This document shows positions 1-48,850 of a stretch of DNA of 64,000 nt, piece by piece. The DNA comes from Limnothrix sp. BL-A-16 (GTDB taxonomy: Bacteria; Cyanobacteriota; Cyanobacteriia; CACIAM-69d): positions 1,600,001 to 1,664,000 of the forward strand of contig CP166615.1 of assembly GCA_041937175.2 (NCBI GenBank). Direction: 5' to 3'. A program made the translations under genes and the position numbers. Within the stretch, counting starts at the first letter, position 1; every line of letters starts with the position of its first letter. The notes under the pieces were generated by a model. It made no database searches. It had not been told where the DNA came from and was given only the letters and a program-made list of their open reading frames with translations.

Positions 1-261
1 AAAATCACGAGGTATAAAAACATAATTGAATCCTAAATTTATGGATGCCAAATTTTTAAATTCGACTGAGAAAGATACAACAAATCTAACAGGAGTTAAT
101 ATTTTTGCCCACGATCAATTAACTGTTGAATGACCTAATCAACAGCTCATCGGCAGCCCGCCCTTGGTCGCCCGACCAATACCCACAGCCCTCGTCCGCT
201 GACGCTGGACAGCGGATTCATTCTGGGGTGTTTCGTGTCATGCTTTTCCGACCGTTCCCGC

Positions 262-501
262 TCAGCCCTCGTCCTCAGCGTCTTTAGGAGCCAGCTCCCC
301 GATCGCCCGGCCCAAATAGGCCTCAACAAAAGCCCGCGCCGCCTTTGGGTTCAACTGCTCTAGGGCATCCACGATCGATGGAATCGATTCCGCTGTTGGG
401 TCGCGCGTTTCTGCGAACCAATGGCTAATAGTGGCGCGATTGATGCCCATCGCCACCGCTAAGCGATTTTGGGCGATGTTGTATTGCTGCAACCGAATCA
501 T
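262..501 (-). CDS. XRE-family helix-turn-helix protein, possibly 5'-truncated
   Basis: QNRLAVAMGINRATISHW HTH plus RDP motif typical of small cyanobacterial XRE proteins; in-frame stop just upstream of the ATG. Confidence 0.7.
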   Translation of the reverse strand: MIRLQQYNIAQNRLAVAMGINRATISHWFAETRDPTAESIPSIVDALEQLNPKAARAFVEAYLGRAIGELAPKDAEDEG

Positions 502-609
502 CCTCGTGGGTCAAAGCGAGTGGGTCGATCGCTTGGTCAAGAGCCGCTACGTAACTGGTGTTTAGCATTATTGTTTTGAAGCTCTCGATTTTTGTACTGC
601 TGGTGCTTA

Positions 610-1059
610 TCAATTAGCTTGCTCTTCTTGAAATGGGCTTGCATACCACTGTAAGTACCATTGTTCTGGATCCTCATCACTGGAACAGTCTTCATACTTT
701 GGAATATGAATCTGGTAAGAATCATGAAAAGACAAGTGAAGACTGTTGTCTTCCAAAAATTCGTACCCTGTAAATATGCTTTGATTTAACGGATGAAATA
801 GATTGCACCACTCTTGAAATCTTAGTCTGTAGTCAATATCTTCATAATGTGGGCACAAGTAGGCATCTGCAATCAGTTCTCCATTCTGCATAAATGACCA
901 AGGTGGGTCAATCCAAATGTAACCTTGCCTTTTTAATTTGTCTTTTTTTTCAAATCTGATTTTGATGGAATTACACGCAATTGAATGGTGACAAGTCTTT
1001 CCAATAAAACCTCTCAAAATCGGTTCATACTTTTGTCGATCACTAGTGATATGGCCCAA
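610..1059 (-). CDS. hypothetical protein (cassette 5 cargo)
   Basis: 149-aa AT-rich ORF downstream (on -) of a GTTGTCC core-like site at 1176-1182. Confidence 0.7.
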   Translation of the reverse strand: MGHITSDRQKYEPILRGFIGKTCHHSIACNSIKIRFEKKDKLKRQGYIWIDPPWSFMQNGELIADAYLCPHYEDIDYRLRFQEWCNLFHPLNQSIFTGYEFLEDNSLHLSFHDSYQIHIPKYEDCSSDEDPEQWYLQWYASPFQEEQAN

Positions 1060-1175
1060 TTTTCCACCTCATTCTCAATACTACAGATGTGCTTTCAACC
1101 TTTAAGCTGAAAGCTATTAACCTTGATCGCTGACAAAGAGTCTATCAAACAAGTTTATAACCTCTTTCTGAAGCA

Positions 1176-1375
1176 GGACAACTATTGATTAAATGATTAG
1201 ATTGCAGTTGCTTGAAAACTCTTTCAGCAGAGTGTTGTTCAGCAGTGGCAAAACAATGTCATCAATTATCATACTTTTGTTGTAACGATCGCCCTGGAAG
1301 CGTCACAGCCCTAACCCAACAGCGCGATCGCCTGTTTCACCAGGTTCTCCGCCGTCAGACCGTTGAGGCCCATCA
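1176..1375 (-). repeat. copy D: 65 bp of phosphoketolase 3' end (1311-1375) plus diverged attI-like spacer
   Basis: Aligns to 8307-8537 (aacgatcgccctggaa.cgtcacagccctaacccaac...; ctttcagcagagtgttg). Confidence 0.9.
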
Positions 1376-1678
1376 AACGTCTTCATCGTAGGCTCTCGCA
1401 ATCGCGGTGTCGAAACGGCTGGCAAACTCGCAGAACTCCTGCCCCCAACCACTGCTCACACTGACCTCCTGGATTGGGCCGGTGGGAAGAAACAAAAGCT
1501 CAATGTCGGAACGCTTGGGTATGTCGCCAGACTCAATGCGAGAAACAATGCTGTCAATCTCTCGAAGTGCTGCCGGTGCATCCTTCCATGAAGACCAATC
1601 AAAGTTGTTGTCGGGCCGCGAGAGGAACTGGCGCGCCTCTCGGAGAACCTCAACCAACTGTTGGTGCTTGGAATTCAT
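1373..1678 (-). CDS. conserved hypothetical protein (cassette 4 cargo)
   Basis: 101-aa ORF with LFLPTGPIQEVSVSSGWG motif; starts 18 nt after a GTTAGGT core site; its stop codon lies in phosphoketolase-derived sequence. Confidence 0.75.
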   Translation of the reverse strand: MNSKHQQLVEVLREARQFLSRPDNNFDWSSWKDAPAALREIDSIVSRIESGDIPKRSDIELLFLPTGPIQEVSVSSGWGQEFCEFASRFDTAIARAYDEDV

Positions 1679-1695
1679 AGAGACGTGCGGATGAC

Positions 1696-2014
1696 ACCTA
1701 ACTATTTATTAGATCGCAGCTGCGGGATGACTCTTTCAGCAGAGCGTTGTCAAGCAGTTGCAGTGTAACTTCAGTATGAAGGGTATTATCCCGCAGTTGC
1801 GAGATAATACCCCCACTTATAGAACTTCTATCGCAACGATCGCCCTGGAAGCGTCACAGCCCTAGCCCAATGGCGCGATCGCCCGTTTCACCAGATTCTC
1901 CGCCGTCAGACCATTGAGGCCCATCAGTTGGCCAGCGGTGGCCGTCGTTTCGCCGCGCTTCCAGGCGAACAGATCGCGCGGGGCCGTGCTACGGAGGGCG
2001 ATCGGCTCCAGCAT
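1696..2014 (-). repeat. copy C: 153 bp of phosphoketolase 3' end (1862-2014) plus full attI-like spacer (1696-1861)
   Basis: Colinear with 8307-8625; translates to MLEPIALRSTAPRDLFAWKRGETT... Confidence 0.95.
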
Positions 2015-2018
2015 GGTG

Positions 2019-2753
2019 TTAGTCGTCGCCATCACGTTCAATCTCACGCTCAATAATCTCTTTGACAAACTCAGGCAGTTCCTTCTCAACACTGACAGCC
2101 CTTTGCTTGAGCCTTTCATAAATCTCAGTGTCATCTCCTTCCCAAAGCAGATCTATTCTTCTGATCTGCCGCATTGCAATATGCTCATAGCTTTCTGGAT
2201 AAGCCCAGTAGCAAGATAGACAAATAGATTTATCCTTAATGCTGTTCCAGTTTTCGCAATGTTCGCATGACCACGACTTGGCCCGGTTAGCTGAGCCACA
2301 AAGTAACATGAAATTTTCTGGGACTAGATCCGGCTCACCAGCAACTTCAAAAGGGACACGATGATCAATTTGTAATTCGCGTTGATTAACCTCTTCAAGA
2401 TAAATAAAGCACCTACATCCATATCTGCTAATCAGTGCCTCTTTAATCTGCTTGGATAAACCTGTTCTGCCAGAAAGGCGAGTGAATCTTGTCTTGCTAA
2501 TATCTCCAAGTCGATATGCAGCTATTTTTCTGCCATCGCTTCCAGTAACACGAAAAGTTTCTAATGGGATACCACTTTCTCTAACATCTCTAGCTGCTCT
2601 TGGAGGATGGTTATAACCGTAAGTTTCTTTTAATTCCTCAGTTGTAATAAATCCGTGTTGCAAGATGTGGTCAATGACTGCTTTCGGTCTCTTTGCTGTT
2701 ACAGAACGGCAAAGTTCCAGGAAGTCATCGGGTAGCTGCTGTGAATTCTCCAT
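2019..2753 (-). CDS. HNH-type Type II restriction endonuclease (SphI/NspI-like)
   Basis: DHRVPF...LCGSANRAK HNH core, CxxC motifs, N-terminal HPPRAARD; overlaps the MTase gene. Confidence 0.75.
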   Translation of the reverse strand: MENSQQLPDDFLELCRSVTAKRPKAVIDHILQHGFITTEELKETYGYNHPPRAARDVRESGIPLETFRVTGSDGRKIAAYRLGDISKTRFTRLSGRTGLSKQIKEALISRYGCRCFIYLEEVNQRELQIDHRVPFEVAGEPDLVPENFMLLCGSANRAKSWSCEHCENWNSIKDKSICLSCYWAYPESYEHIAMRQIRRIDLLWEGDDTEIYERLKQRAVSVEKELPEFVKEIIEREIERDGDD

Positions 2754-3672
2754 GTGTTTCCAAAAGGGTTAGCTGCTTTGGTTGTTGGTCAATATAGCTA
2801 AAATCATAAATTTTAGTGTTCATTAATTTTTTGGATAAACTTGGCGACAAGTACAGCGACTCAATTGTATTTTCCGATTTGCCTAGTAAGGTAGACTGTG
2901 AAGATCTGCCAACTTCGATTTCGATTCTTTCAAGATTTAAGCTATTAGGGAGAAATTTGCCAAACGCCTTATCACCTAATTTTCCGTCATAACTGATAGC
3001 AAATACAGATCCTTTTTGATTTAAGCATTCAAGCGCTAACACAAATTCATCGAAGTCTATCCCAGACAAATATCTTGAATCTCTATTGCCGCATACACCT
3101 TGATATGGAGGATCCATATAGATAAAATCACCTTCTTGAATTTGCTCTAATACCTCTCGGTAATCCAAATTAGTAAATTTACATTTGCTTTTGAGCAAAC
3201 TAGAAACACCGATTATATTTTTTCTCATTGTTTCGGGTCGTGTTCCTTTGCGTCTTTTGTCCGGACTTTGGTTAAACAATCCTTCAGAATTGTAGCGAAC
3301 CGAACCTTTAACGCACCTTGCTAGTAGATAAAGAAGTAGTTTTGGATCGTTGGTCTCATTGAATTTTGATCTGACTTCAAAGTAATGGTCTACAGAATTG
3401 GGGTGTTGTTTATTCCATAGCTCTAAGTAAAAATCGGCTATTTCGTCTGGTTTTTCTACAGCTAGTTCTAGGAGCTTGATGAGCGGATGGTTCAGATCGT
3501 TTAACCAAAAACTCTGGGTGATTTGACTTGCGGACGTAGCAACACTAATTGCAGCAGTTCCAGCAAAAGGCTCTACTAGCCTCTTGAATTTTTTTGGAAA
3601 GAACTGGAGGATGTGCTTTGCTAGCTTCCTTTTGCTGCCTTGATATTGAATGAAGTGGGGTAGGTTTGCCAT
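2725..3672 (-). CDS. Dam (D12)-family DNA adenine methyltransferase
   Basis: YQGSKRKL, EPFAG (motif I), DPPY (motif IV). Confidence 0.92.
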   Translation of the reverse strand: MANLPHFIQYQGSKRKLAKHILQFFPKKFKRLVEPFAGTAAISVATSASQITQSFWLNDLNHPLIKLLELAVEKPDEIADFYLELWNKQHPNSVDHYFEVRSKFNETNDPKLLLYLLARCVKGSVRYNSEGLFNQSPDKRRKGTRPETMRKNIIGVSSLLKSKCKFTNLDYREVLEQIQEGDFIYMDPPYQGVCGNRDSRYLSGIDFDEFVLALECLNQKGSVFAISYDGKLGDKAFGKFLPNSLNLERIEIEVGRSSQSTLLGKSENTIESLYLSPSLSKKLMNTKIYDFSYIDQQPKQLTLLETHGEFTAATR

Positions 3673-3785
3673 CGTTATACAAGGACAAATGATCTTACAG
3701 CGGCTGATTAGGATAGTTCGAGCTTATCGCTTAATTCAAGCATTTTTTCAAGGGCGATCGAAGGGGTGAGGCTGGAGTCTAAGAC

Positions 3786-4019
3786 GACTAACGATTCATT
3801 CGGCTGCAATGATCGCCCGTTGAACCAGGTTCTCAGCCGTCAGACCGTTGAGGCCCATCAGTTGGCCAGTGGTGGCTGTCGTTTCGCCGCGCTTCCAGGC
3901 AAACACATCGCGTGGGGCCGTGCTGCGGAGAACGATCGGCTCCAGCATCGCACTCGTGCCGCCGGTCACGCCCAACAACGCATCACCGCCGAAGAGCCGA
4001 TCGAACGTTGTGCATCATC
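3786..4019 (-). repeat. copy B: about 200 bp of phosphoketolase 3' region (3811-4019) plus a minimal att-like end
   Basis: Aligns to 8488-8694 with 16 substitutions in the first 198 nt (manual count). Confidence 0.95.
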
Positions 4020-4075
4020 CACAGCAAGATAACGGTGTTAGCCTGTCTCAACCAATAGTTTAGTAGAGCAATCCA

Positions 4076-4900
4076 TTAATCTCTTTCCTCATCCTGAAGC
4101 TCTTTTTCGTCTATCTCAACTAGCTCATCAACTACCGAATCTAAAGAAGGTTGATCATCTTCTGAAGGCAATCTGTATTTAGATAAAAAACTCTGAAGCT
4201 TAGGATGCGGTATCCTTTTTAGCTTTCCAAAATTTGTATCCTCGTTAAAATCCTTACCTTCAGATTCCTTGCGACCATATGAATTTGTGTCTAAAGGTAA
4301 ACCTTTTCTGAGTTTTTCTTTCCCGATTTTGCTTAAAACCGTTGGCGTTTCATAATTTCCAAACCATCTTCCACCACGATCAGTCATACGTTTATCTCGT
4401 GCTTCAACAAGCTCAATCATAGAAAAAAGTTCGAGATCAATAATTTGGGGAACTGCTGCATCTGAGTTCAGATCATCTACCTCCATTCGATATGCTATGA
4501 GCAGCATTGCGTCTAACTCCGGATCGACATTTTTGACAGTTACTTTCTGAGTAAGTCGGGCTGATGGCTCTCGTGGTGTAGGCGGCTTTTTCATTTTAAG
4601 ACCAGGATTATCTACATAAAGAAGCTTTAGCTCCAACCTCTTGCCAGATTCATGTTTGTAATCTGGATATCCTTCTCTTTCTCCCAAAATACCTTCATGC
4701 TTTTCAAGCCCAAGTCCTTTTATATCCAAATGAGGAATGAGTGCATCCATCAAGGCACCTACAATTGTGCCTACTTGAGATGGTTCAAATGCGGTAATTG
4801 CTACTATCGGCAGACTTAAGCTCCGAAATTGTTGTCCTATCAAAGGCTTAAGTTGCTCTTTTAGCTTATCCAAGTCATGGTTCGATATGCGACCACTCAT
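4076..4900 (-). CDS. putative PD-(D/E)xK restriction endonuclease
   Basis: YPDY...LELK motif; coupled (ATGA overlap) to an HTH controller gene; next to an MTase. Confidence 0.7.
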   Translation of the reverse strand: MSGRISNHDLDKLKEQLKPLIGQQFRSLSLPIVAITAFEPSQVGTIVGALMDALIPHLDIKGLGLEKHEGILGEREGYPDYKHESGKRLELKLLYVDNPGLKMKKPPTPREPSARLTQKVTVKNVDPELDAMLLIAYRMEVDDLNSDAAVPQIIDLELFSMIELVEARDKRMTDRGGRWFGNYETPTVLSKIGKEKLRKGLPLDTNSYGRKESEGKDFNEDTNFGKLKRIPHPKLQSFLSKYRLPSEDDQPSLDSVVDELVEIDEKELQDEERD

Positions 4901-5157
4901 GTCTCTTTCTCTTCCTTCTGAATTTTTTGTTTTATTTCAGAAGGGAGGACATCTTCTAGATAAAGACCTAAGGCAGCACACCATTTAGCTGCTTCAATTA
5001 CATCAAGCCGTCTTTCACAGGTTTCTACCTTGGAGACCAAGGTTTGCTCTTTACCCAATCTTTCCCCCAACTGTTGCTGAGAAAGATTTTGTCTCTTACG
5101 AGCACGACGAAGGCGAGCAATAAACTCAATGTAGAGAGGGTCACGAGCACCCGACAT
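4897..5157 (-). CDS. XRE-family HTH, RM controller (C) protein-like
   Basis: LSQQQLGERLG...VSKVETCERRLD; immediately upstream of the REase. Confidence 0.8.
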   Translation of the reverse strand: MSGARDPLYIEFIARLRRARKRQNLSQQQLGERLGKEQTLVSKVETCERRLDVIEAAKWCAALGLYLEDVLPSEIKQKIQKEEKET

Positions 5158-5285
5158 AAGGCAGCAAGTATGCGAATTTAGGGTACAAGTTGAAGGTAGA
5201 GGATGCCATCCATTCCTGACCTAAATCGTGCATCTCCTTAGCAAATACCCCAAAAACGCATATTTATAGTTTCCCGACCATCGTC

Positions 5286-5314
5286 TTGACAAATGATCAA
5301 CCCTGCGCGATACT
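5286..5314 (+). promoter_or_regulatory. sigma70-type promoter for the MTase operon
   Basis: TTGACA-N17-GATACT, about 20 nt before RBS aagga and the ATG. Confidence 0.6.
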
Positions 5315-5336
5315 TCGGTTGACTAAAGGAATGAGT

Positions 5337-6629
5337 ATGGCTAAACGACATCAAAATCAACAAGGCAACCTCGAATCGCTGTTTCTTCGCATGGAAGAAC
5401 TTGTTCTTGCAAATTCTGGTGAGGACGAGTTTGAGGAGGTGTTTAAGTTGCTTGTAGCAAAGCTTTGGGATGAACGAAGCCAACAATCTAAATTTTATCG
5501 ATATAGCACTGATGAAGCTACCTTTGAAGCAATAGCCAAACTCATGAGAGAAGCGGAAAAAAAATGGTCGGGAGTTCTCAATGAAGTCACATCCAAACTT
5601 ACGCCTGAGCATCTTTCAATCTGTGTAGATGCTCTTTCAAAACATAACATCTCTAATGAAAGTCTTGATGTTATTGATAGTTTCTTTGAATTTATAGTAT
5701 CCAAGTCGGCAAAGGGAGCTAAAGGTCAATACTTTACTCCAAGGCATGTAGTTGAACTATGTGTAAGAATTTTAAAACCTTCTTCAGGTGAGACAATTCT
5801 TGATCCGGCTTGCGGATCGGGCGGATTTCTCCTCCACGCATTGAAATTTATTAAACAACATGAAAAGTTAGATAGTGGAGGAGAAATTCAAGGCTTTTGT
5901 AGTGAAAAATTATGGGGTTTTGATATTGATGCCAAAGCCACACGAGTTGCTAAGGCTTTAATGATACTTGCAGGAGATGGGAGTAGTAACATTGTCAGGC
6001 TTAATAGCTTATTGAAGCCTGAAATGATTGGGCTTTTTAGAAACACAGAAGAGCCGAATCTTACTATAGAGGATGTATGTCGAAGTCGAATTAAACGTCA
6101 CAAAGGTTTCGACGTTATCCTTACAAATCCTCCCTTTGCTGGTGAGATTAGAGAAAATAGCTTTCTCAATTGTTATAACCTTGCAAATAAAAAATCTCGA
6201 ATTGAAAGGGATATATTATTTGTTGAGAGATGCCTTGAGCTATTAAGACCTGGAGGGCGATTAGCTATAGTCTTGCCTCATAATAAGTTTGCCGGAAAAT
6301 CATTTGAGTTTCTACGACAATGGATTTTGAGGAAAGCAAGAATTCTTGCTGTCATAGGTTTAGGAAGAAATACTTTTATGCCTCATACTCATCAAAAAGC
6401 CAGTATTCTAATATTGAAAAAGCAATCTCCTGGGAAGAGTATCCCGTCAGATTATAATATCTTTTTTGCGATTAGTGAAAAAGATGGCAAGAACTCTAAG
6501 GGGCAGTTTGTTCTGCATGAATCTGTTGCGAGATTAGAAAATACTTGGGAAGATATAGATCATGACTTCTCAGAAATAGTTGAAGGCTTTGAGACATTCT
6601 TAAAACAGGAAAATATTGATTTCGAGTAA
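5337..6629 (+). CDS. HsdM-like N6-adenine DNA methyltransferase (M subunit)
   Basis: GQYFTPR, DPACGSGGFL, NPPF; start taken at the ATG after the RBS. Confidence 0.92.
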   Translation: MAKRHQNQQGNLESLFLRMEELVLANSGEDEFEEVFKLLVAKLWDERSQQSKFYRYSTDEATFEAIAKLMREAEKKWSGVLNEVTSKLTPEHLSICVDALSKHNISNESLDVIDSFFEFIVSKSAKGAKGQYFTPRHVVELCVRILKPSSGETILDPACGSGGFLLHALKFIKQHEKLDSGGEIQGFCSEKLWGFDIDAKATRVAKALMILAGDGSSNIVRLNSLLKPEMIGLFRNTEEPNLTIEDVCRSRIKRHKGFDVILTNPPFAGEIRENSFLNCYNLANKKSRIERDILFVERCLELLRPGGRLAIVLPHNKFAGKSFEFLRQWILRKARILAVIGLGRNTFMPHTHQKASILILKKQSPGKSIPSDYNIFFAISEKDGKNSKGQFVLHESVARLENTWEDIDHDFSEIVEGFETFLKQENIDFE

Positions 6630-6634
6630 CAAAT

Positions 6635-7294
6635 ATGGCTTTGATTTCGATTCAGTCAAAAACTCGTCTTGTGTCACCAGTAATTCTTGCTCCCGAAAGA
6701 TACGATCCAAGACGGAAAATCAAGACGCAAGAAAACGAAGTAGTTGAGCTAGGTGAAATCGTTATTTCCGTAAAGAAGATGGTTAAATCCTCTGTTAATC
6801 TTGGAAAATGTTTTGTTCTTGATACTTCTGACGCTCGAGAAGGCATTGTAATTGCCAGAAAGCAATCGCTGCAAGGCACTGAAATTGGTAGCACCAAGAA
6901 GGAGGTCAAATCTGGGGATGTTATTATCTCACGTCTTAGACCATATCTACGACAAGTAGCATTTATTGATGAAGAGATACCTAATGCTAATGGTACTCAG
7001 ATTCTTTGCTCTACGGAATTCTTTGTCTTACGCTCAATTGATAATCTATCGATAGCATTTTTGGTACCTTTTTTACTTTCAAACGCAATTCAGGAAGTAC
7101 TCGCAGCATCCCAAGAAGGTGGGCATTATCCTAGATTTATCGAATCGGCTCTTCTAACACTTCCTATACCCAAAAGCCTCTTATCCCAACGCTCACTGAT
7201 CTCTGAAGTTGTCAGAAATAGTGTTCAAATGTACAGAGCTTCTGAGAAATCGATGTCAAACATGGTCGAAAAGATTAACGCTACGCTGTCTTAA
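6635..7294 (+). CDS. single-TRD specificity (HsdS-like half) subunit
   Basis: GDVIISRLRPYL...CSTEFFVL motifs; 219 aa; directly after M. Confidence 0.8.
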   Translation: MALISIQSKTRLVSPVILAPERYDPRRKIKTQENEVVELGEIVISVKKMVKSSVNLGKCFVLDTSDAREGIVIARKQSLQGTEIGSTKKEVKSGDVIISRLRPYLRQVAFIDEEIPNANGTQILCSTEFFVLRSIDNLSIAFLVPFLLSNAIQEVLAASQEGGHYPRFIESALLTLPIPKSLLSQRSLISEVVRNSVQMYRASEKSMSNMVEKINATLS

Positions 7295-7350
7295 GATTTT
7301 TCTCATGAAATTTTAGATTTGCGGAGGGCAGCAAGACCTAGACTTTTGCA

Positions 7351-7436
7351 GGCTAACGTTCCTGGTCAGCGGTTGCCGATACCTTGTCCACTCCACAAGC
7401 AACTTGGGGCAATCCGCTGCACCAGGGTTGTTGTGC
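7351..7436 (-). other. attC-like recombination site (86 bp)
   Basis: On -: R'' GCACAAC, arm cctggtGcagcggAttgcc / ggcaaccgctgaccagg with two extrahelical bases, R' GTTAGCC. Confidence 0.85.
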
Positions 7437-8313
7437 TGCGTGCTGAACTATTCATTATTTACTTTAGGTTCTGAAGGTTTTGGTTCTCGCAACTTATTCT
7501 TAACTTGATTGTTAGAATTATTTAGAAAATCAGATTCTATACCAGCAGAACTCCTTTCAATCAGGTTTGTAATAAGCTTATCCATAAGTTGTAGGTTTTT
7601 CTCTGGATCTTTAACTTGCTTACAAAGCTCAACAGCTAGCATTGTGTCTTGAATTCTAGTCAGTTGCTTATAGAATCGATTAGATTGCTCAACTGTCCGG
7701 TTATAAAGAACAAAGTTAGCACCTCCTATGAATTGAAGAATTATTCCAGAAATGCCAGATATAATCGACAACTCAAGCTTTTGTCCTTCTTTAATAAAAG
7801 GTAGCAATATTGCTATAACTACAGTAATAAATCCTAAAAATATGACTAATGCGCTGAAGCTAAAGCTACGTCTTGCTTGATTTTTGTTAATTGTATAGTA
7901 CTCGGTAATCTGATTTAAATTTAACCTTATAACATCTACAACACTATCTTCTCTTTCAATTCTTTCAATAATCTTTTCTCTTTCTTGCTTTATTGCTTTT
8001 ACTTCGATTGTTTCTGAGATTGCTGATTTGGATAAACTAAAAGGATTATTGGACAGGAGAAAAAACACAACAATTACAGTAAGAGGCAGTGTAGGAATAC
8101 CCAGGAAATTCCCAACCCACGCGACTAGAGCCGCCGTTATGAAATTAGCGGGGATCTCAGTCATCATTACTTGTGTCCATGCTTCTTTAAAGCTACTGGC
8201 TCTTTTTCTCATAATGAATTTCCGTAGGCGTTGTATTTGGGAAAAGTTGCTAATACCTTAGCAAAAGAGCATAGCTTTTGATACTCCCCCAACCAATAAC
8301 TCAGCAGCACAAC
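7357..8313 (-). mobile_element. integron-like gene cassette 1
   Basis: gcagcacaac (8304-8313) and gttgtgctgc (7430-7439) are a perfect 10-bp inverted pair; full attC follows the ORF. Confidence 0.85.
7448..8212 (-). CDS. membrane protein with a TRADD-N-associated 2-TM-like domain
   Basis: EYYTINKNQARRSF + TM + ISGII.QFIGG.NF.LY pattern; additional N-terminal TM segments. Confidence 0.6.
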   Translation of the reverse strand: MRKRASSFKEAWTQVMMTEIPANFITAALVAWVGNFLGIPTLPLTVIVVFFLLSNNPFSLSKSAISETIEVKAIKQEREKIIERIEREDSVVDVIRLNLNQITEYYTINKNQARRSFSFSALVIFLGFITVVIAILLPFIKEGQKLELSIISGISGIILQFIGGANFVLYNRTVEQSNRFYKQLTRIQDTMLAVELCKQVKDPEKNLQLMDKLITNLIERSSAGIESDFLNNSNNQVKNKLREPKPSEPKVNNE

Positions 8314-8472
8314 TATGTATTAGACCGCAAGTGCAGGATAACTCCTTCAGCAGAGTGTTATCAAGCAGCTACAGTCTAACTCCAGTCCAAAGGGTACTAC
8401 CCCGCAGTTGCAGGATAATACCCCCACCTATAGAACTTCTACCGCAACGATCGCCCTGGAATCGTCACAGCC
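8307..8472 (-). other. attI-like spacer between the phosphoketolase stop and the first cassette (copy A)
   Basis: Ends in a GTT core; internal palindrome at 8392-8423; homologous to 1696-1861 and 1176-1310. Confidence 0.6.
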
Positions 8473-10686
8473 CTAACCCAACAGCGCGATCGCCCGTTTC
8501 ACCAGGTTCTCCGCCGTCAGACCGTTCAGGCCCATCAGTTGGCCAGCGGTCGCCGTCGTTTCGCCGCGCTTCCAGGCAAACACATCGCGCGGAGCCGTGC
8601 TGCGCAGGACGATCGGCTCCAGCATCGCACTCGTACCGCCGGTCACACCCAACAATGCATCACCACCAAAGAGCCGATCGAACGTCGCATCATCAATAAA
8701 GTGAGCATCCGGCTCCGAGCACATCTCCACCGCCACATCGGTCGATCGGTAGAGGCGACGGGGGCTAATCACCGACACGATCCGCGAACCGATCCCCTGG
8801 GCCGCCAACTGTTCGGCGGCCGCCAGCGCCGGGGTCAAGGTCATGTCACCAATCACCGCCAAGACCACGGTTTTTTCGCCGGGCGTTTCTTGCAACACAA
8901 AGCCGCCGTCCTGCAAGGCTTGGCGCGTTTGCTCAAAGGTCGAGACGATCGGCAGCGGCGACTTGCTGACCGTAATCGTGATCCCCTTGTTCACTTGCGC
9001 CAGCGCCCAGTCATAGCAAGCCTGGGTGCTGTTCGCATCGCAGGGGAACAGCGGGAAGATGTTGCCGTTGCGCATCATCGCCGCGAAGTAGTTTTCGATT
9101 TCCGGGCGTTGGTGCGTCCAGCCGTTGCGGCCCTGCTCCAGCGCACCCGCCGTGAACAGGCAGACCGTGGCGGGCGTGGGGCGGCGCAACTCGGCCATGG
9201 CTTGGGTGACGGTTTGCCAAATCGGCAGACCGTTGATCGCGAACGACTCGTAGGAACACCAGAGCGATCGCGCCCCAAACAGGGCTTGCCCCACCGCCAA
9301 CCCGGCGCAGGCATCCTCGTTCAGGGGTTCATACACCTGACCATCGGGCTGTTGGAAATAGATGGGGTCGGTGGTCGGGTGAACGATTTTCAGGCCCACA
9401 TTGATGTTGTTGATCCCCGAGGCGGCGTTGCCGTCGGCGTTGGTGACGATGAAGTCGCGATCGGCTTGACCCACTTGCACCACCACATCGCCCATGGCCG
9501 TGGTCGAAACCTTCTTTTCGCCGGCCGGGAATTCCACCAGGTTCAGCTTGCCCAAATCCGCTAGGGGCCGCACCTTTTCGGTCACGGCCACCTGAGCCGC
9601 CGGGCCACCGCCCGATCGCTCAAAGTTCGTCCGCACCAGTTGCCAAGCCTCCGGCGACAGGGCCCGCTCCTTCAGGGCCGCCACAATGTAGTCCCGCTCC
9701 AGGTTGTCGCCGGGATAGAGGTTGTGGGACTGAGCACCGCGCTTGTGTACGCCCGCGCCCTTCAGTTGCTTGATGATCAACACCGTCAGCTTGCCGCCCA
9801 AGGCCAGTTTCGCCGCCTGGTCGGTGGCTTCCAGCACTGCCTGGGCAAACACCAATCGCTGGGCAAAGGAAAACTGGGTGCTATCGACGTAATCGCCCGG
9901 TTGGTTGGCATCGTCGAAGTCCTTGGCATCCAGCAGCACCACTTCTTCAAAGCCATTGCCGCGCCAGTAGGCTTCCATGGCGGCGTTGGATTTGGTGGAG
10001 ACCATGCTGTGGTGCTCTTGGCTGTAGCCGTTCCAAATCAGAATCGGCAGGAAGTTGGTGGCCTGCGGATAGGCGGTGTTGAAGTGGCCAAAGCTGCTCA
10101 TGATGTAGGGTTCGCCCAGGCCGCCATCCCCGATCGTCACGGGGAAGAGGGTTCCGGGGAACAGCTTGGCCCCGGCCATGGCAAAGTGCTGACCCTGGCC
10201 GAGGGGGCCGGCGGGGGCCAGCAGGCCGGGAATTTGCCCCGACAGGTGGCCGAGCAGGCCGTGGGTTTCGCGGAATCGATCGCGCAATTGCTGCACCGTC
10301 GTGATGCCCATGGCTTCGAGCGATCGATCCAAGAACACCTGGGAATAGAAACCGGGGGCGTGGTGGCCCACTTCGGTGGTGAAGTTCTTGTAACCGAGCA
10401 TGATCAGCGCCGCCATCACATCGGCAGAGCTGGCATAGCCGCCGGGGTGGCCCGATTCCTTGCTGGCGGTCATCTGCACGATCAGGTAACGCAGGGCATC
10501 GGCCGCCAGGAGAGTTTGGAAGGCCGCCGCTCGATCGCTCGGGCTGGCGATCGCCCCTGTGGTCGCATCCACGGCTGGCGCAGCACCCAGGATGTCAAAT
10601 TCGGGCCAAGGCGCACCGAAGTATTGAATGCCGTCGCAAAACGCAGGCGTGGTCGTGGGTGCGGGGGTTGTGGCGGTCATGGGCAA
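8473..10686 (-). CDS. xfp: phosphoketolase/transketolase-family ThDP enzyme
   Basis: SGHPGG, GDGG...N ThDP motif, NGWTHQRP. Confidence 0.85.
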   Translation of the reverse strand: MPMTATTPAPTTTPAFCDGIQYFGAPWPEFDILGAAPAVDATTGAIASPSDRAAAFQTLLAADALRYLIVQMTASKESGHPGGYASSADVMAALIMLGYKNFTTEVGHHAPGFYSQVFLDRSLEAMGITTVQQLRDRFRETHGLLGHLSGQIPGLLAPAGPLGQGQHFAMAGAKLFPGTLFPVTIGDGGLGEPYIMSSFGHFNTAYPQATNFLPILIWNGYSQEHHSMVSTKSNAAMEAYWRGNGFEEVVLLDAKDFDDANQPGDYVDSTQFSFAQRLVFAQAVLEATDQAAKLALGGKLTVLIIKQLKGAGVHKRGAQSHNLYPGDNLERDYIVAALKERALSPEAWQLVRTNFERSGGGPAAQVAVTEKVRPLADLGKLNLVEFPAGEKKVSTTAMGDVVVQVGQADRDFIVTNADGNAASGINNINVGLKIVHPTTDPIYFQQPDGQVYEPLNEDACAGLAVGQALFGARSLWCSYESFAINGLPIWQTVTQAMAELRRPTPATVCLFTAGALEQGRNGWTHQRPEIENYFAAMMRNGNIFPLFPCDANSTQACYDWALAQVNKGITITVSKSPLPIVSTFEQTRQALQDGGFVLQETPGEKTVVLAVIGDMTLTPALAAAEQLAAQGIGSRIVSVISPRRLYRSTDVAVEMCSEPDAHFIDDATFDRLFGGDALLGVTGGTSAMLEPIVLRSTAPRDVFAWKRGETTATAGQLMGLNGLTAENLVKRAIALLG

Positions 10687-10962
10687 TTCACCTAGTGGTT
10701 CGACTCTCTCGACTGTAAGGCCAGTCTTGAGGCGATATTTTACAACCTTGATGTTGCTAAAGTCTCAGGACGATCAACTCAGGACGATCGAAACCGGCCC
10801 CTTAACGACCCGTTGTACTGGGGGCTGGACGATCAGCAGGCGATCGATTGTGGCAGTCTCTCGCTAAATTTGCCGCCCTAGTCCAGACCCAAAACGCCAC
10901 GCCCTAACCCATCAACCCTGTTGATAGACTGGGGGCAATTCCCCGATCGAAACTGGTCGCCT

Positions 10963-11508
10963 ATGTTGACCCTGGCGCAATGGACCGTGGCGGAATATCA
11001 CCAAATGATCGCGGCGGGCCTGCTGGTCGATCGCCGCGTGGAACTGTTGAACGGGCAAATTATTGAAATGTCACCGGAAGGGCCGGAGCATACCTATCGC
11101 GGCGAAACCCTGGCGGAGTGGCTGCGCGATCGCCTGCGGGGGCGAGCCTATGTGCGGGAAGCGCGACCGATTACCCTAGACCATTCGGAACCGGAGCCAG
11201 ATATTGCCGTGGTGCGGGGCGATCGATCCCAATTTGTCCAACGACATCCCGGCGCGGCGGATCTGTTTTGGGTGGTGGAAATTGCCCGATCGACCCTAGC
11301 CACAGACCTGACCCACAAGCGGGATCTCTACGCGCGGGTGGGAATTCCGGAATATTGGGTGGTGGATTTGGTGAATCGGCGGGTGGTGGTGTTTCGGCAA
11401 CCGGAAGCGGGCCGCTACAGCCAAGCGGAAACGGTGAGCGATCGCCCGATCGCGCCGCTGGCTTTCCCGGACTGTGCGATCGACCTGACCCAGCTCTTTC
11501 AACCGTAG
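10963..11508 (+). CDS. Uma2-family (DUF820) endonuclease-like protein
   Basis: RVELLNGQIIEMSP, PEPD, K..LYA..GIPEYWVVD. Confidence 0.92.
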   Translation: MLTLAQWTVAEYHQMIAAGLLVDRRVELLNGQIIEMSPEGPEHTYRGETLAEWLRDRLRGRAYVREARPITLDHSEPEPDIAVVRGDRSQFVQRHPGAADLFWVVEIARSTLATDLTHKRDLYARVGIPEYWVVDLVNRRVVVFRQPEAGRYSQAETVSDRPIAPLAFPDCAIDLTQLFQP

Positions 11509-11540
11509 AGTCTGCCGCGTGACGACGCGACAACGCAATT

Positions 11541-12086
11541 ATGTTGACCCTGGCGCAATGGACTGTGGCGGAATATCACCAAATGATTGCGGCGGGCCTG
11601 TTGGTCGATCGCCGCGTGGAACTGTTGAACGGGCAAATTATTGAAATGTCACCGGAAGGGCCAGAACACCGCTACCAATGCAGCAGTTTGGGCGATCGGC
11701 TGCGGGTGCTGTTGCGCGATCAGGCTTGGATTAGTGAGGCACACCCGATTACGCTGGATGACTCGGAACCGGAGCCGGATTTGGCCATTGTTCGGTTGCC
11801 TCGATCGGCCTTTCGCGATCGCCACCCGGGGCCAGCGGATCTGTTTTGGGTGATTGAAATTGCTCGATCGACCCTCACCACAGACCTGACCCACAAGCGG
11901 GATCTCTACGCGCGGGTGGGAATTCCGGAATATTGGGTGGTGGATTTGGTGAACCGGCGGGTGGTGGTGTTTCGGCAACCGGAAGCGGGCCGCTACAGCC
12001 AAGCGGAAACGGTGAGCGATCGCCCGATCGCGCCGCTGGCCTTCCCGGACTGTGCGATCGACCTGGCCCAGCTCTTTCAACCGTAG
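11541..12086 (+). CDS. Uma2-family endonuclease-like protein (tandem paralog)
   Basis: Same motifs and same length as the upstream copy. Confidence 0.92.
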   Translation: MLTLAQWTVAEYHQMIAAGLLVDRRVELLNGQIIEMSPEGPEHRYQCSSLGDRLRVLLRDQAWISEAHPITLDDSEPEPDLAIVRLPRSAFRDRHPGPADLFWVIEIARSTLTTDLTHKRDLYARVGIPEYWVVDLVNRRVVVFRQPEAGRYSQAETVSDRPIAPLAFPDCAIDLAQLFQP

Positions 12087-12107: not shown

Positions 12108-13688
12108 CTATGGGCCGGTGCGAAACGAGGGCAAGGCTTCAAATTGGGCAAACTCAGACTCCAGTTTCCACTGCACCCGGGCGCGATCGCTCTGGGCCAA
12201 AAAGCCCTGACACCCGGCCGAAATGGCGGCAACGTTGGGCGAATCTTGGGCACAAGCGGCAGTCACTGCGTCAAAATTTGACGAATTCCAAAGACTAGCT
12301 CCCGAGAGGAAACTATATTCCAAACTATTGCGCGCCAACCGTTTGAGATCGGCATAGCTCAACTGATAGCGCAGGATTGCCAATCCATACTCGTTGCTCA
12401 AATCAATGCGAGCAATGCCCTCATCATCGGAAGCCAACGTCATGGGCACACCGGCCGCGAGATATTCGCGGAAGGGATGTTGGTTGCCAGCCACATTCAA
12501 AATCACCTCATTGCTGGTGAGGCAAATTTCGACTAACACCCCTCGTTTGCGCATTTCTGCCATCAGTTGAAAGGGGTTGTTTTCATAGAGAATGCTCACC
12601 CCATGGCCAATGCGACTGGCCTGAGCCACTTCCACCGCTTGCCGAATATGAAAACGCAGATCATTGGGTGGCACTAAGCCCAGGGTTAGTTCCCCCGCAT
12701 GAAGGGAAATTTTGACTTCCGGAAACTGCGTTTTTAGAAATTGCAACATCTGCATTTGTTGCTGGTAGTCGCGCAGGGCCACCGGGTTATCTTCTGGGGC
12801 AACTAAGTTGATACCCACAACGCGGGAGTTCGCTTTGGCCAACTCAAAGGCATAGACAAATTGGGCAAACACTTCCTCAGGTGCTTTGGTGCGTGTGGTT
12901 TGTTGCAAATAGCGCACCGTCACTTCACAGCCCGGTTGGGCCATGGGCGTATCGCAGCGTAAAGTGCTGGCGACCTGGCGTTCAAGATTCGCCACCTCTT
13001 GGCTGCCTCGGGTGACCAGCTCCATTAGGCCGCGATCGAGCAACGCGCGCCGCATCTGGGCAAAGTCGCCACTCCAGCCCACGGCCCGCCCCAGTTGACG
13101 CACTTCAGCGCCTTGAACGGTCATCAACAGCTCTAAATAGAAAATATGCTGATCAGCGGCGCGATTGGCCACTTCGGCCACCATGTCGTCCTGGCGCGAC
13201 GGAGTAGAAGAAATCTCCGAAAAGCCGCCAAACGCCTGGAAAAATTGGTCATGGCCCGATCGATTGGCAAAGGGCAGATTGCGGGTTGACCACAAATTAA
13301 TCAGGGCATCGTAGGTGTCAGGACGATTGGGCAACTGCGAAGCGGGAAAATAGCGGCTGTTTTGGCCACAGGCACTCGGTTGAATCAGGGTCAGGGCCTG
13401 GGGATCAATGCAGTAGCCATCGGCGGCGGCCCACTCCAGATAACGCTCCGCATAAACGGCCCCGCTCAGGTGCGTATGAATGTCGCCCCCTTTCGGCATT
13501 CGCTGCACAAAGGCCCGAATCGCAGGAGGACTGGCGCGGTGCTGCTCCAACCATTGGCTCACTTGGGCTTCGGCATCACGGCGCGATCGCGGGTTTACGG
13601 GAGCTTCTTGGGCGGCAACGCTGGAAACAACCAGGCCAGAGCCAAGCAACAGTCCCCATAAAACAGCGAAGGAGGAAAGTTTGGGCAT
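12108..13688 (-). CDS. secreted adenosine deaminase family protein
   Basis: Signal peptide, MPKGGDIHTH, LHAGE, RIGHG, SDD. Confidence 0.88.
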   Translation of the reverse strand: MPKLSSFAVLWGLLLGSGLVVSSVAAQEAPVNPRSRRDAEAQVSQWLEQHRASPPAIRAFVQRMPKGGDIHTHLSGAVYAERYLEWAAADGYCIDPQALTLIQPSACGQNSRYFPASQLPNRPDTYDALINLWSTRNLPFANRSGHDQFFQAFGGFSEISSTPSRQDDMVAEVANRAADQHIFYLELLMTVQGAEVRQLGRAVGWSGDFAQMRRALLDRGLMELVTRGSQEVANLERQVASTLRCDTPMAQPGCEVTVRYLQQTTRTKAPEEVFAQFVYAFELAKANSRVVGINLVAPEDNPVALRDYQQQMQMLQFLKTQFPEVKISLHAGELTLGLVPPNDLRFHIRQAVEVAQASRIGHGVSILYENNPFQLMAEMRKRGVLVEICLTSNEVILNVAGNQHPFREYLAAGVPMTLASDDEGIARIDLSNEYGLAILRYQLSYADLKRLARNSLEYSFLSGASLWNSSNFDAVTAACAQDSPNVAAISAGCQGFLAQSDRARVQWKLESEFAQFEALPSFRTGP

Positions 13689-47926: not shown

Positions 47927-48850
47927 TTAAAGATCCAAATAACGCCCAGAACTGTCCTGGGGTCGGGCATGGAGATAGCGGCCTGTGGTGGCAATGCTGG
48001 CATGGCCCAGGGTGGCTTGCACCAGGTGAATCGGCGCACCCCGATCGAGGCTGTGGCTGGCGTGGGCGTGGCGCAACCAGTGGGGCGAAACATTGGCCTC
48101 AATGCCCACTCGCTGGGCTGCCGATCGCACAATTCGCATCAGTTGCGAGGGATCCAGGTGGCCCCCCTTGCGGCTCCGAAAAATCGGATCTTGGCGATGG
48201 GGCAACGGCTCGATCGACTCGCGATAGGCCTGGAGTTCTTGCCAGAGCGTTGGCGGCAGCAACACCGCGCGGGTTTTGTTGCCCTTGCCATAGACCGTCA
48301 CTTGGCCCCCATCCCCTCGGGGTTGCAAATCTCGCCAACAAAGTCCACAAAGCTCACTAGCTCGCACCCCGGCCGCATAGAGCAATCGCAACATTAATCG
48401 ATTGCGCAGTTGTGGTTCTGCCGCCAGCATTTCTTGTACTTGAGTCTCACTTAAAATTCGCTCCGAAAGAGTGTCTTTCGTACTGGGGACTTTAAAAGCC
48501 ACTGCCGGATTGTCGGGAGCCAGGCCCATTTGATGCGCAAACCGCAGCAGGGATTTAATGGCCGCGATCGAACGGCCCATGCTGCTCGGAGCCAGTCGAT
48601 CGCGCTCCAACTCATCCAAAAACCCCTGCACATCAATGGCGCTCACCTGCTCGATCGGGCAATCCACAAAAGCCAGAAACCGCAAGGCCTCCCGCTGGTA
48701 ATAGCGACGGGTGTGGCGACTTTTGCCATGGAGCCACAGGGCCAAGAGTCGTTCATGGGCTGGCGAAAGGGGCAAATCTGGGCGATCGACCCGATCGGGT
48801 TCAGGCCGTGAGCCGATCGATTTTCGAGAAGCGCCGCCCAATTTCGCCAT
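47927..48850 (-). CDS. tyrosine recombinase (XerC/D-like)
   Basis: GVRASE, GKG.KTR, HWLRH, LGH...T.RY. Confidence 0.93.
   Translation of the reverse strand: MAKLGGASRKSIGSRPEPDRVDRPDLPLSPAHERLLALWLHGKSRHTRRYYQREALRFLAFVDCPIEQVSAIDVQGFLDELERDRLAPSSMGRSIAAIKSLLRFAHQMGLAPDNPAVAFKVPSTKDTLSERILSETQVQEMLAAEPQLRNRLMLRLLYAAGVRASELCGLCWRDLQPRGDGGQVTVYGKGNKTRAVLLPPTLWQELQAYRESIEPLPHRQDPIFRSRKGGHLDPSQLMRIVRSAAQRVGIEANVSPHWLRHAHASHSLDRGAPIHLVQATLGHASIATTGRYLHARPQDSSGRYLDL

Follow-up and report, generated by a model that had tools for sequence, protein, structure and literature searches.

The window analysed here is a stretch of 64,000 nucleotides (nt) from the 4.56-Mb genome of Limnothrix sp. BL-A-16 (genome G000; window G000:C1:1600001-1664000). 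Behind a gene distantly related to phosphoketolases, here called xfp-like, it carries what is probably an integron-type cassette array at an orphan attI-type site, in a lineage without integron integrase; this grading covers the history proposed below as well. Cassettes follow one another on the downstream side of the gene and alternate with truncated copies of its own 3' end (Table 1). An initial annotation of this DNA had proposed an integrase-less cassette train in which units of xfp end, att site and cassette were stacked one by one; that interpretation is partly supported. Relatives used for comparison were G001 and G002 (congeners, G002 being a sister species) and G003 (another genus of the same family); among the numbered loci, L033 is the train of G002, L060 lies on G003:C7, and L061 is a second attI array of G000. 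The name xfp is approximate only, because family matches are weak (Pfam XFP, 44 bits, XFP_N also weak; NCBIfam phosphoketolase, 100 bits against a cut-off of 777); orthologues with 65-98% identity are present in the genomes of 30 other relatives.

The attI-type element is the spacer directly behind the gene. Homology among G000-G003 at the xfp locus stops at one point, right after ...GCGGTCTAATAMATAGTT, and each genome continues with different DNA of low guanine plus cytosine (GC) content; the end point is constant although the xfp genes are merely 80-94% identical, and no conserved downstream core flank is found among the four. The GTT noticed at the spacer end in the initial annotation is present, and the crossover would lie between 8313 (G) and 8312 (T), written G/TT below. 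GC content is 0.61-0.64 in the xfp-like gene and 0.32-0.45 in the cassettes downstream. A covariance model of the element (R1) matches 6 of 41 relatives' genomes at E ≤ 0.01, four of them strongly, at 14 places in total; strong places number four in G000, one in G001, five in G002, and four in G003. The weak matches in G015 and G017 were rejected, being tandem palindromic repeats of about 34 nt (GGATAATACCC...GGAGTTATCC; G015:C9, L043; G017, L044 and L048) and not the element. Six extra element loci were fetched: they lie behind unrelated genes, and GC content falls from about 0.6 to about 0.4 directly after GTT in all six.

The spacer is read as attI-type because it ends in a core, GTCTAATACATAG followed by TT, that other cyanobacterial integrons have in identical form at a site about 150 nt from their intI. 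One of these, G014, has GTCTAATACATAGTT with the TTAGAC inverted arm some 150-240 nt upstream of a 458-bit intI; another, L143 (a Pseudanabaenales record), has the same site 154 nt from an IntI that is 94.7% identical to that of G014. An uncultured Spirulina metagenome-assembled genome (L149) holds a long form of the element, with a GC drop after it. That the array is headed by an attI site whose crossover falls at G/TT of a GTTRRRY-like box is thus concluded from homology only, and the A-rich run before GTTRRRY resembles the delta-attI1/delta-attI2 consensus given in PMC12901181. The attI assignment of the spacer goes by homology to a single integron lineage (G014/L143), in line with the initial proposal of an integron-type att site behind xfp. 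On the minus strand at 8335-8364, within hairpin 3 and directed at the cassettes, stands a promoter-like TTGATA-N18-TATCCT (9/12 matches); type-2 copies of the element have TTGACA where G000 has TTGATA. On such a platform, which has no intI, the motif may act as promoter of the cassettes.

The same spacer could be read as a conserved 3' untranslated region, terminator, or small RNA of xfp, and the locus as a plain recombination hotspot with no site-specific system. The RNA fold on the xfp sense strand is strong (-72.4 kcal/mol, z -4.2, with G-U pairs used), and the genome lacks an integrase. The spacer has no Rfam match (window 1-9000, nothing up to E 1), a result counted on the side of the hotspot. 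Set against this, the element stands behind unrelated genes at the six further loci with foreign DNA always beginning at G/TT, its core is identical to the intI-adjacent site, attC sites are present, and a conserved core flank downstream is missing from G000-G003; we consider such a hotspot very improbable.

The second mark of an integron is the attC site. A generic AAC...GTT hairpin scan proved unspecific, with many matches in coding DNA, and was replaced by a covariance model (R2) built from 11 foreign attC sites (six from G013; one each from G014, G023, L143, L144, and L129; 12 were located, one near-identical G013 duplicate was dropped, and none came from G000-G003). All attC calls and thresholds given here are those of R2, not of IntegronFinder's model. 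The attC suspected earlier between cassettes 1 and 2 is recovered with E 2.7e-5 in 225 kb (window plus loci), or 1.1e-6 with filters off, and shows visible homology to one of the attC sites of G013, whose array has intI. Within these 225 kb R2 has 13 matches at E ≤ 1, all within arrays and co-oriented with attI; they include four in the second array of G000 and the terminal sites of single inserts in G003. Three matches fall in the xfp array of G002 (54.2, 45.9, and 19.6 bits), two of them directly preceding its pieces B' and C'. The whole G000 genome has three matches at E ≤ 0.01, two of which lie within its two attI arrays. The third (G000:C1:3694951-3695027; 28.8 bits, E 0.003) has no attI element nearby and lies about 4 kb from a region that flanks a type-2 attI locus in G002. 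In the ten best sites 84.7% of cells are paired, against 68.1% in shuffled and 21-39% in slid alignments, and 10 pairs are changed on both sides, a count equalled by none of 500 shuffles; the alignment (A4) was fitted to the model, so that these pair counts favour structure. No second copy of the hairpin at 7330-7450 was found by blastn in the genome or in the relatives' loci, hence the attC sites are not a homogeneous repeat family. At L060 (G003:C7), ATAG/TTATGCCGCTTAGTCC follows the attI, and the sequence after its G/TT is repeated after that of the terminal attC (CAGCCG/TTATGCCGCTTAGCCC); this is the expected signature of an attI x attC product, intact. By the R2 matches and the paired changes in their R''/L''...L'/R' hairpins, the cassettes do carry attC sites; in the window one is complete (7351-7436) and the others are degenerate.

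What sets this array apart is the material between the cassettes. A blastn search of the whole genome with 8200-9000 returned exactly three partial copies of the xfp 3' end, all downstream and on the same strand, plus the distal spacer once more at another genomic position. The pieces, put at about 200, 153, and 65 bp in the initial annotation, measure 207, 153, and 65 nt, and the copies of the 3' end differ from each other by 3-12%. Piece B has 207 coding nt and breaks off inside a HIP1 site, 15 nt short of the stop codon, with no attI after it. The att end formerly ascribed to this piece is not on its 3' side; an att remnant, TTATCTTGCTGTG, is on its 5' side. Piece C consists of 153 coding nt including the stop codon and 162 nt of spacer, with GTT at 1702-1700; the attI copy behind it reaches 112.4 bits with R1. 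Piece D has 65 coding nt plus the stop, then spacer running to about 1173 with a 39-nt gap; hairpin 2 of its attI copy is deleted, GTT is found at 1182-1180, and R1 gives 72 bits.

The pieces appear to go back to one joint. At 4020..4043 an attC remnant, GGCTAAC-ACC-G (just 6 bits, E 4.2 with R2, not significant), is joined at G/TT to 13 nt of attI right half (TTATCTTGCTGTG), and the junction with piece B (G000_B) reads TTATCTTGCTGTG/GATGATG. All four pieces of G002 (B', C', D', and E') start at one xfp position, after G/TTATC(T/C).. and then GATGAT.., so that a junction G/TTATCTTGCTG(TG)-GATGATG is common to five pieces in two species. The stretch TTATCTTGCTG is the attI right half as found after G/TT in locus 2 of G002; the own site of G000 reads TTGTGCTGCTG. 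Because all G002 pieces and G000_B have the identical junction, the comparison points to one founding event, in which 11-13 nt of attI right half were linked to xfp about 226 nt before its stop; we infer that this event was one duplication of [xfp end + attI], amplified afterwards. The G002 train is orthologous (blocks 86-94% identical, order unchanged), and in it each piece comes after the attC of the preceding cassette. The pieces therefore do not stand in place of attC sites, as had been thought, and are extra copies of [xfp end + attI]. Relative to their G002 orthologues, the unequal 5' ends of C and D in G000 are, by alignment, later deletions: that of C spans R'' and ACC of the preceding attC to xfp position 8626, and the 5' edge of D fits a deletion at a microhomology (CGTT). 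The 5' breakpoints are accordingly not the independent events that the initial annotation took them for. Dispersed copies of the element keep remnants of the xfp end too (G002:C90, 153 nt; G003:C9, about 26 nt; type-2 loci, about 20 nt).

Multiple breakpoints lie in or beside CGATCG/HIP1 (GCGATCGC) sites (window 8488-8495 and 8607-8612; L033, L034, L036, L058-L060). They comprise the 3' ends of piece B and of the G001 piece; the left edge of a 71-nt deletion; and the left ends of the dispersed copies in G003:C9, the type-2 loci, and the G002:C90 piece. Such sites are common in these genomes, so the association may be chance.

The pieces have not changed as dead copies would. Pairwise alignment of B with the resident gene gives 17 mismatches, of which 15 are synonymous changes at third codon positions; for C the count is 10/13, and for B and C together 25/30. 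We estimate the third-position share expected of a decaying dead copy at about 40-45%. Over 113 nt the G001 piece has 3 differences to the G000/G002 genes and 7 to the gene of its own host. The third-position bias and the G001 piece thus speak for conversion by, or import with, functional alleles rather than dead-copy decay. They also lend something to the stacking proposed in the initial annotation, in which each [xfp 3' end + att + cassette] unit would have arrived separately, for example by natural transformation, with homology in xfp at one end and an independent illegitimate join at the other: the pieces resemble functional alleles of other lineages, those of G000 begin at three different xfp positions, and the G002:C90 and G003:C9 pieces have yet other left ends (153 and ~26 nt). 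Against separate arrival, the four G002 pieces and G000_B have one junction with the same 11-13-nt attI remnant, the edges of C and D in G000 map onto deletions, and one-ended homology with an illegitimate join leaves no downstream duplicate by itself. We regard it as unlikely. Of the stacking scheme, homologous recombination between pieces and an illegitimate junction at one end have stood; the independence of the breakpoints has not.

Recombination at the locus is seen in natural populations. The attI-proximal cassette is different in each of G000-G003. Four metagenome runs from four different studies, each containing 0.18-0.26 of the sampled words, gave contigs that in all four cover 1100-4035 at 90-99% identity and bridge the D, C, and B junctions. 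Most of the region of cassettes 1 and 2 (4148-8211) is uncovered in all four runs; missing cover was counted as a finding only where a contig spans it, as in run X4. There, 4034 is joined to 8435 through 1088 other letters, and the contig has a single B/C hybrid piece without RM2, the second restriction-modification (R-M) system, between. It follows that the proximal position turns over and that cassettes between pieces can go by recombination, and the hybrid indicates that homologous recombination between xfp pieces occurs. The cassette turnover behind xfp that had been predicted is therefore observed, in relatives and in X4. The same contigs bear on an assembly artefact or strain-mixing chimera, for which only the general risk attached to repeats can be cited: the copies are 3-12% divergent, G002 is an independent assembly with orthologous junctions, and contigs of 4/4 runs bridge the joints. 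The chance of such an artefact is negligible, and by these comparisons the train is not a chimera.

The lineage appears to be without the enzyme that such sites call for. No IntI was found in G000: the best TIGR02249 scores are 57 bits (six-frame) and 99 bits (open reading frames, ORFs), against a cut-off of 265, as the description of the train as integrase-less had it. The model passes its cut-off in 15/41 relatives of the class and in 0/8 genomes of this family. The single PF00589 match in G000 is Xer-like (47927-48850, minus strand; XerC 182 bits, XerD 182 bits, IntI 99 bits), 40 kb from the array, and an Xer-like recombinase has the same relative position in G002 (contig C31). Neither 1-8472 nor 15.6 kb of sequence ahead of the window start contains a recombinase ORF. 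A genomic island that encodes an integrase and sits at a gene 3' end was rejected, as no recombinase is nearby and the repeats are of unequal length.

The history that we probably have to do with would run as follows. One illegitimate join between 11-13 nt of attI right half and xfp about 226 nt before its stop would have left [xfp 3' end + attI] twice in tandem; unequal homologous recombination among the copies, the simplest route, would then have raised the number to at least four units. Cassettes would be loaded at G/TT of the attI copies, which is why each piece would come after the attC of the preceding cassette, and the newest cassettes would adjoin xfp. Later deletions, several at CGATCG/HIP1 sites, would account for the shortness of C and D in G000 and for the loss of the attI behind B, and recombination or gene conversion with functional xfp alleles may hold the pieces allele-like. 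The catalyst would come from outside the genome, as a transient supply of IntI acting in trans; alternatively, whole segments might be imported by homologous recombination, with xfp/attI and an xfp piece as arms. More tentatively, the [host-gene end + attI] module may itself be a pseudo-cassette with G/TT on both sides, copied within the array, moved to new chromosomal sites, and able to seed arrays there in genomes that lack an integrase. If so, orphan attI platforms would be one birth route of integrase-less cassette clusters, serviced by transient IntI or, in a bolder version, by the host's single Xer-like recombinase.

Several points weigh against this reading. IntI is found in none of the eight family genomes, so that loading by IntI is deduced and homologous recombination alone could give the turnover. 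The window has a single significant attC; cassette 2 ends in a 17-nt remnant (6 bits, E 4.2), the G001 array has no R2 match at E ≤ 1, and the pair counts of the ten best attC sites are biased by the fitting of A4 noted above. Three other intI loci fetched (G013, G023, and G028) are without the attI motif, and R1 on six intI loci of other cyanobacteria gave nothing significant (best 14.7 bits, E 0.13). A 15-mer scan of genome contigs returned at least 121 stretches, mostly chance in unrelated phyla; about 11 cyanobacterial sites were judged by eye to have the motif in the same context, just one of them with IntI within 2.5 kb, and tblastn found no xfp beside the motif in the scanned loci. Covariation in the long hairpin of the element is not beyond that of shuffles. 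The third-position bias is unexplained by simple in-situ duplication and requires extra gene conversion, as does the full length of G000_B, whose positional orthologue G002_B has a 71-nt deletion that is also in G002_D. Finally, both R-M cassettes comprise several genes, in one of them on both strands, which is atypical of cassettes.

Table 1 Features of the array behind the xfp-like gene, listed from the anchor gene to the distal end. Positions are those of the window; aa, amino acids; MTase, methyltransferase; REase, restriction endonuclease.
Feature	Position	Strand	Basis and remarks
xfp-like gene	8473..10686	-	Distant phosphoketolase/transketolase family; anchors array
attI-type element	8306..8472	-	167 nt, three hairpins; ends ...GCGGTCTAATACATAG/TT
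Cassette 1	7357..8312	-	ORF 7448-8212, 254 aa membrane protein, CyanoTRADDas_TM domain (Pfam); with attC
attC of cassette 1	7351..7436	-	R'' GCACAAC ... R' GTTAGCC; R2 31.5 bits
Cassette 2 (R-M system 1)	4044..7350	both	Pfam, PADLOC
Cassette 2, half specificity subunit	6635-7294	+	PADLOC Specificity_I 65 bits
Cassette 2, N6 MTase	5286-6629	+	PADLOC MTase_I 320 bits
Cassette 2, control protein	4897-5157	-	PADLOC Control_protein 38.5 bits
Cassette 2, putative REase	4076-4900	-	PADLOC REase_II 18 bits, weak
Degenerate attC remnant with attI right-half remnant (putative founding junction)	4020..4043	-	Sequence comparison with G002
xfp piece B	3811..4019	-	blastn 90.9% over 209 nt; 207 coding nt
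Cassette 3 (R-M system 2, RM2)	2015..3810	-	Ends in R''-like GACTAAC-ACC
RM2, Dam-type MTase	2725-3672	-	Pfam MethyltransfD12; PADLOC MTase_II 220 bits
RM2, HNH type II REase	2019-2753	-	PADLOC REase_II 195 bits
xfp piece C with full attI copy	1700..2014	-	blastn 88.6% over 315 nt
Cassette III	1376..1699	-	One ORF 1373-1678, 101 aa, no known family
xfp piece D with degenerate attI copy	1173..1375	-	blastn part 1284-1375, 96.7% over 92 nt
Cassette IV	550..1181	-	One ORF 610-1059, 149 aa, no known family; distal array end not defined

The cassette-1 gene is rare (2/301 genomes of the class); its only homologue there, in G079, is 38% identical and flanked by attC-like matches. The MTase of RM2 is 94% identical to that of G002, where the REase has been replaced: in L033 (5917-6833) only 83 aa of the HNH gene are left and its position is taken by a GST gene, so that the Dam-type MTase, kept without its nuclease, is an orphan methylase there. 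Cassette III has 94.5% identity to its G002 counterpart, which is followed by an attC-like stretch, and cassette IV has 86%.

With two R-M systems among the cassettes, self-insertion has to be weighed. R-M genes reportedly insert with long target duplications in Helicobacter, and the xfp repeats could be such duplications, with no integron involved. RM2 does lie between pieces B and C, and the two have 138 nt of xfp in common; the X4 contig has a single hybrid piece and no RM2; and several breakpoints are at CGATCG/HIP1 sites. But cassettes with other cargo have flanks of the same kind (the 101-aa ORF, SMEK, the genes of locus 2), the repeats start at the left edge with an 11-13-nt attI remnant that is no part of the target, attC sites and the G/TT junction are present, and the X4 form is equally explained by recombinational pop-out between direct repeats. 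Insertion of this kind is hardly probable as the origin of the array.

A second attI-headed array of G000 lies outside the window at G000:C1:3430862-3437200 (L061, 8001-14330). Its ORFs are co-oriented (SUKH/SMI1, DUF6331, methyltransferase, ADH, and GNAT), and R2 matches are found at L061 11211-11298 (52.6 bits), 9824-9914, 9242-9332, and 12310-12413. Its own upstream flank and the element start are repeated inside (L061 7810-8031 = 11374-11595, 86.5%), which indicates that an anchor duplication of the same kind is present at this locus, with its own flank.

Around the xfp array, two Uma2-family paralogues (putative restriction endonuclease-like; 10921-11508 and 11541-12086, plus strand) stand in tandem directly upstream of the xfp-like gene, with 75% DNA identity. 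Before the window start (L037, G000:C1:1585001-1600600) mixed and low GC content goes on for about 7 kb; genes in this stretch code for an AAA_16 protein (800 aa), a DUF1802 protein, a histidine kinase, a GDSL lipase, and a split DDE_Tnp_4 transposase, and the attC model has no match in it.

The array touches on an open question, namely the origin and continued dynamics of cassette clusters without integrase. In two studies (Cury et al. 2016, PMC4889954; Loot et al., bioRxiv 10.1101/2022.09.11.507474), where the origin of these clusters is discussed, a CALIN is at least two attC sites without intI nearby and a SALIN a single attC site without integrase. The present locus would lend itself well to study: its docking site can be recognised by sequence, occurs in a family without intI, and stands in several copies within one array; remnants of the source gene show where dispersed site copies came from; natural populations vary only in the site-proximal cassette; and the locus offers a candidate attI for cyanobacterial integrons, unannotated by current tools. 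Two complete R-M systems would be integron cargo beside a core gene, in an array whose cargo is mostly R-M defence genes.

The initial annotation knew of no description of the architecture, but related arrangements are in print, both as internal attI sites (PMC12901181) and as CALIN/SALIN arrays. With the latter the array has in common attC cassettes in the chromosome, intI neither nearby nor elsewhere, and small rare accessory genes; unlike them it keeps a recognisable attI-type docking site, in several copies and at up to five places per genome. With one significant attC and one non-significant remnant by our own model and thresholds, the xfp array alone would count as a SALIN by the two-attC rule, and locus 2 of G000 has two R2 matches at E ≤ 0.01 and four at E ≤ 0.1, again on our own thresholds. 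According to PMC4889954, attI is unknown for most integrons and has been searched only by exact match for classes 1-3, hence orphan attI sites of the present kind would go uncalled.

With the complete cyanobacterial integrons G014 and L143 the array shares the core (GTCTAATACATAG, then TT) and TTAGAC arm, both identical, the extended R' (GTTAGNCTGC), and the attC architecture. It differs from them in that intI is absent, so that the adjacent intI with IntI-specific domain of a complete integron is missing; the hairpin preceding the core exceeds theirs by about 60 nt; and the platform lies behind a co-oriented housekeeping-type gene, in G014/L143 behind a divergent intI. R-M insertions with long target duplication likewise place R-M units between direct repeats, each with tens to hundreds of nt from a host gene; here, unlike there, the repeats contain an att element and attI remnant, and cassettes other than R-M systems are flanked too.

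The nearest parallel is in class 1 and 2 mobile integrons, where, according to a 2026 study (PMC12901181), an internal attI or part of one bounds cassettes, and the units so bounded are excised and inserted by IntI1. A second attI, whole or partial, bounds a cassette inside the present array as well: RM2 is followed by piece C and a full attI, cassette III by piece D and a degenerate one. The cases in that study are attI fragments of 14-244 nt in plasmid- or transposon-borne integrons with intI; the present system is chromosomal, cyanobacterial, and without integrase, and a host-gene piece of up to 226 nt intervenes between the cassette and the internal attI. Since the attI copies carry this stretch of host gene, their duplication was not site-specific. 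Among the publications listed by a literature search, none was on orphan attI, on attI duplicated with a host-gene end, or on cyanobacterial attI. The array is thus a variant of known CALIN/SALIN arrays and delta-attI-type cassettes, in which the internal attI copies carry the end of a host gene.

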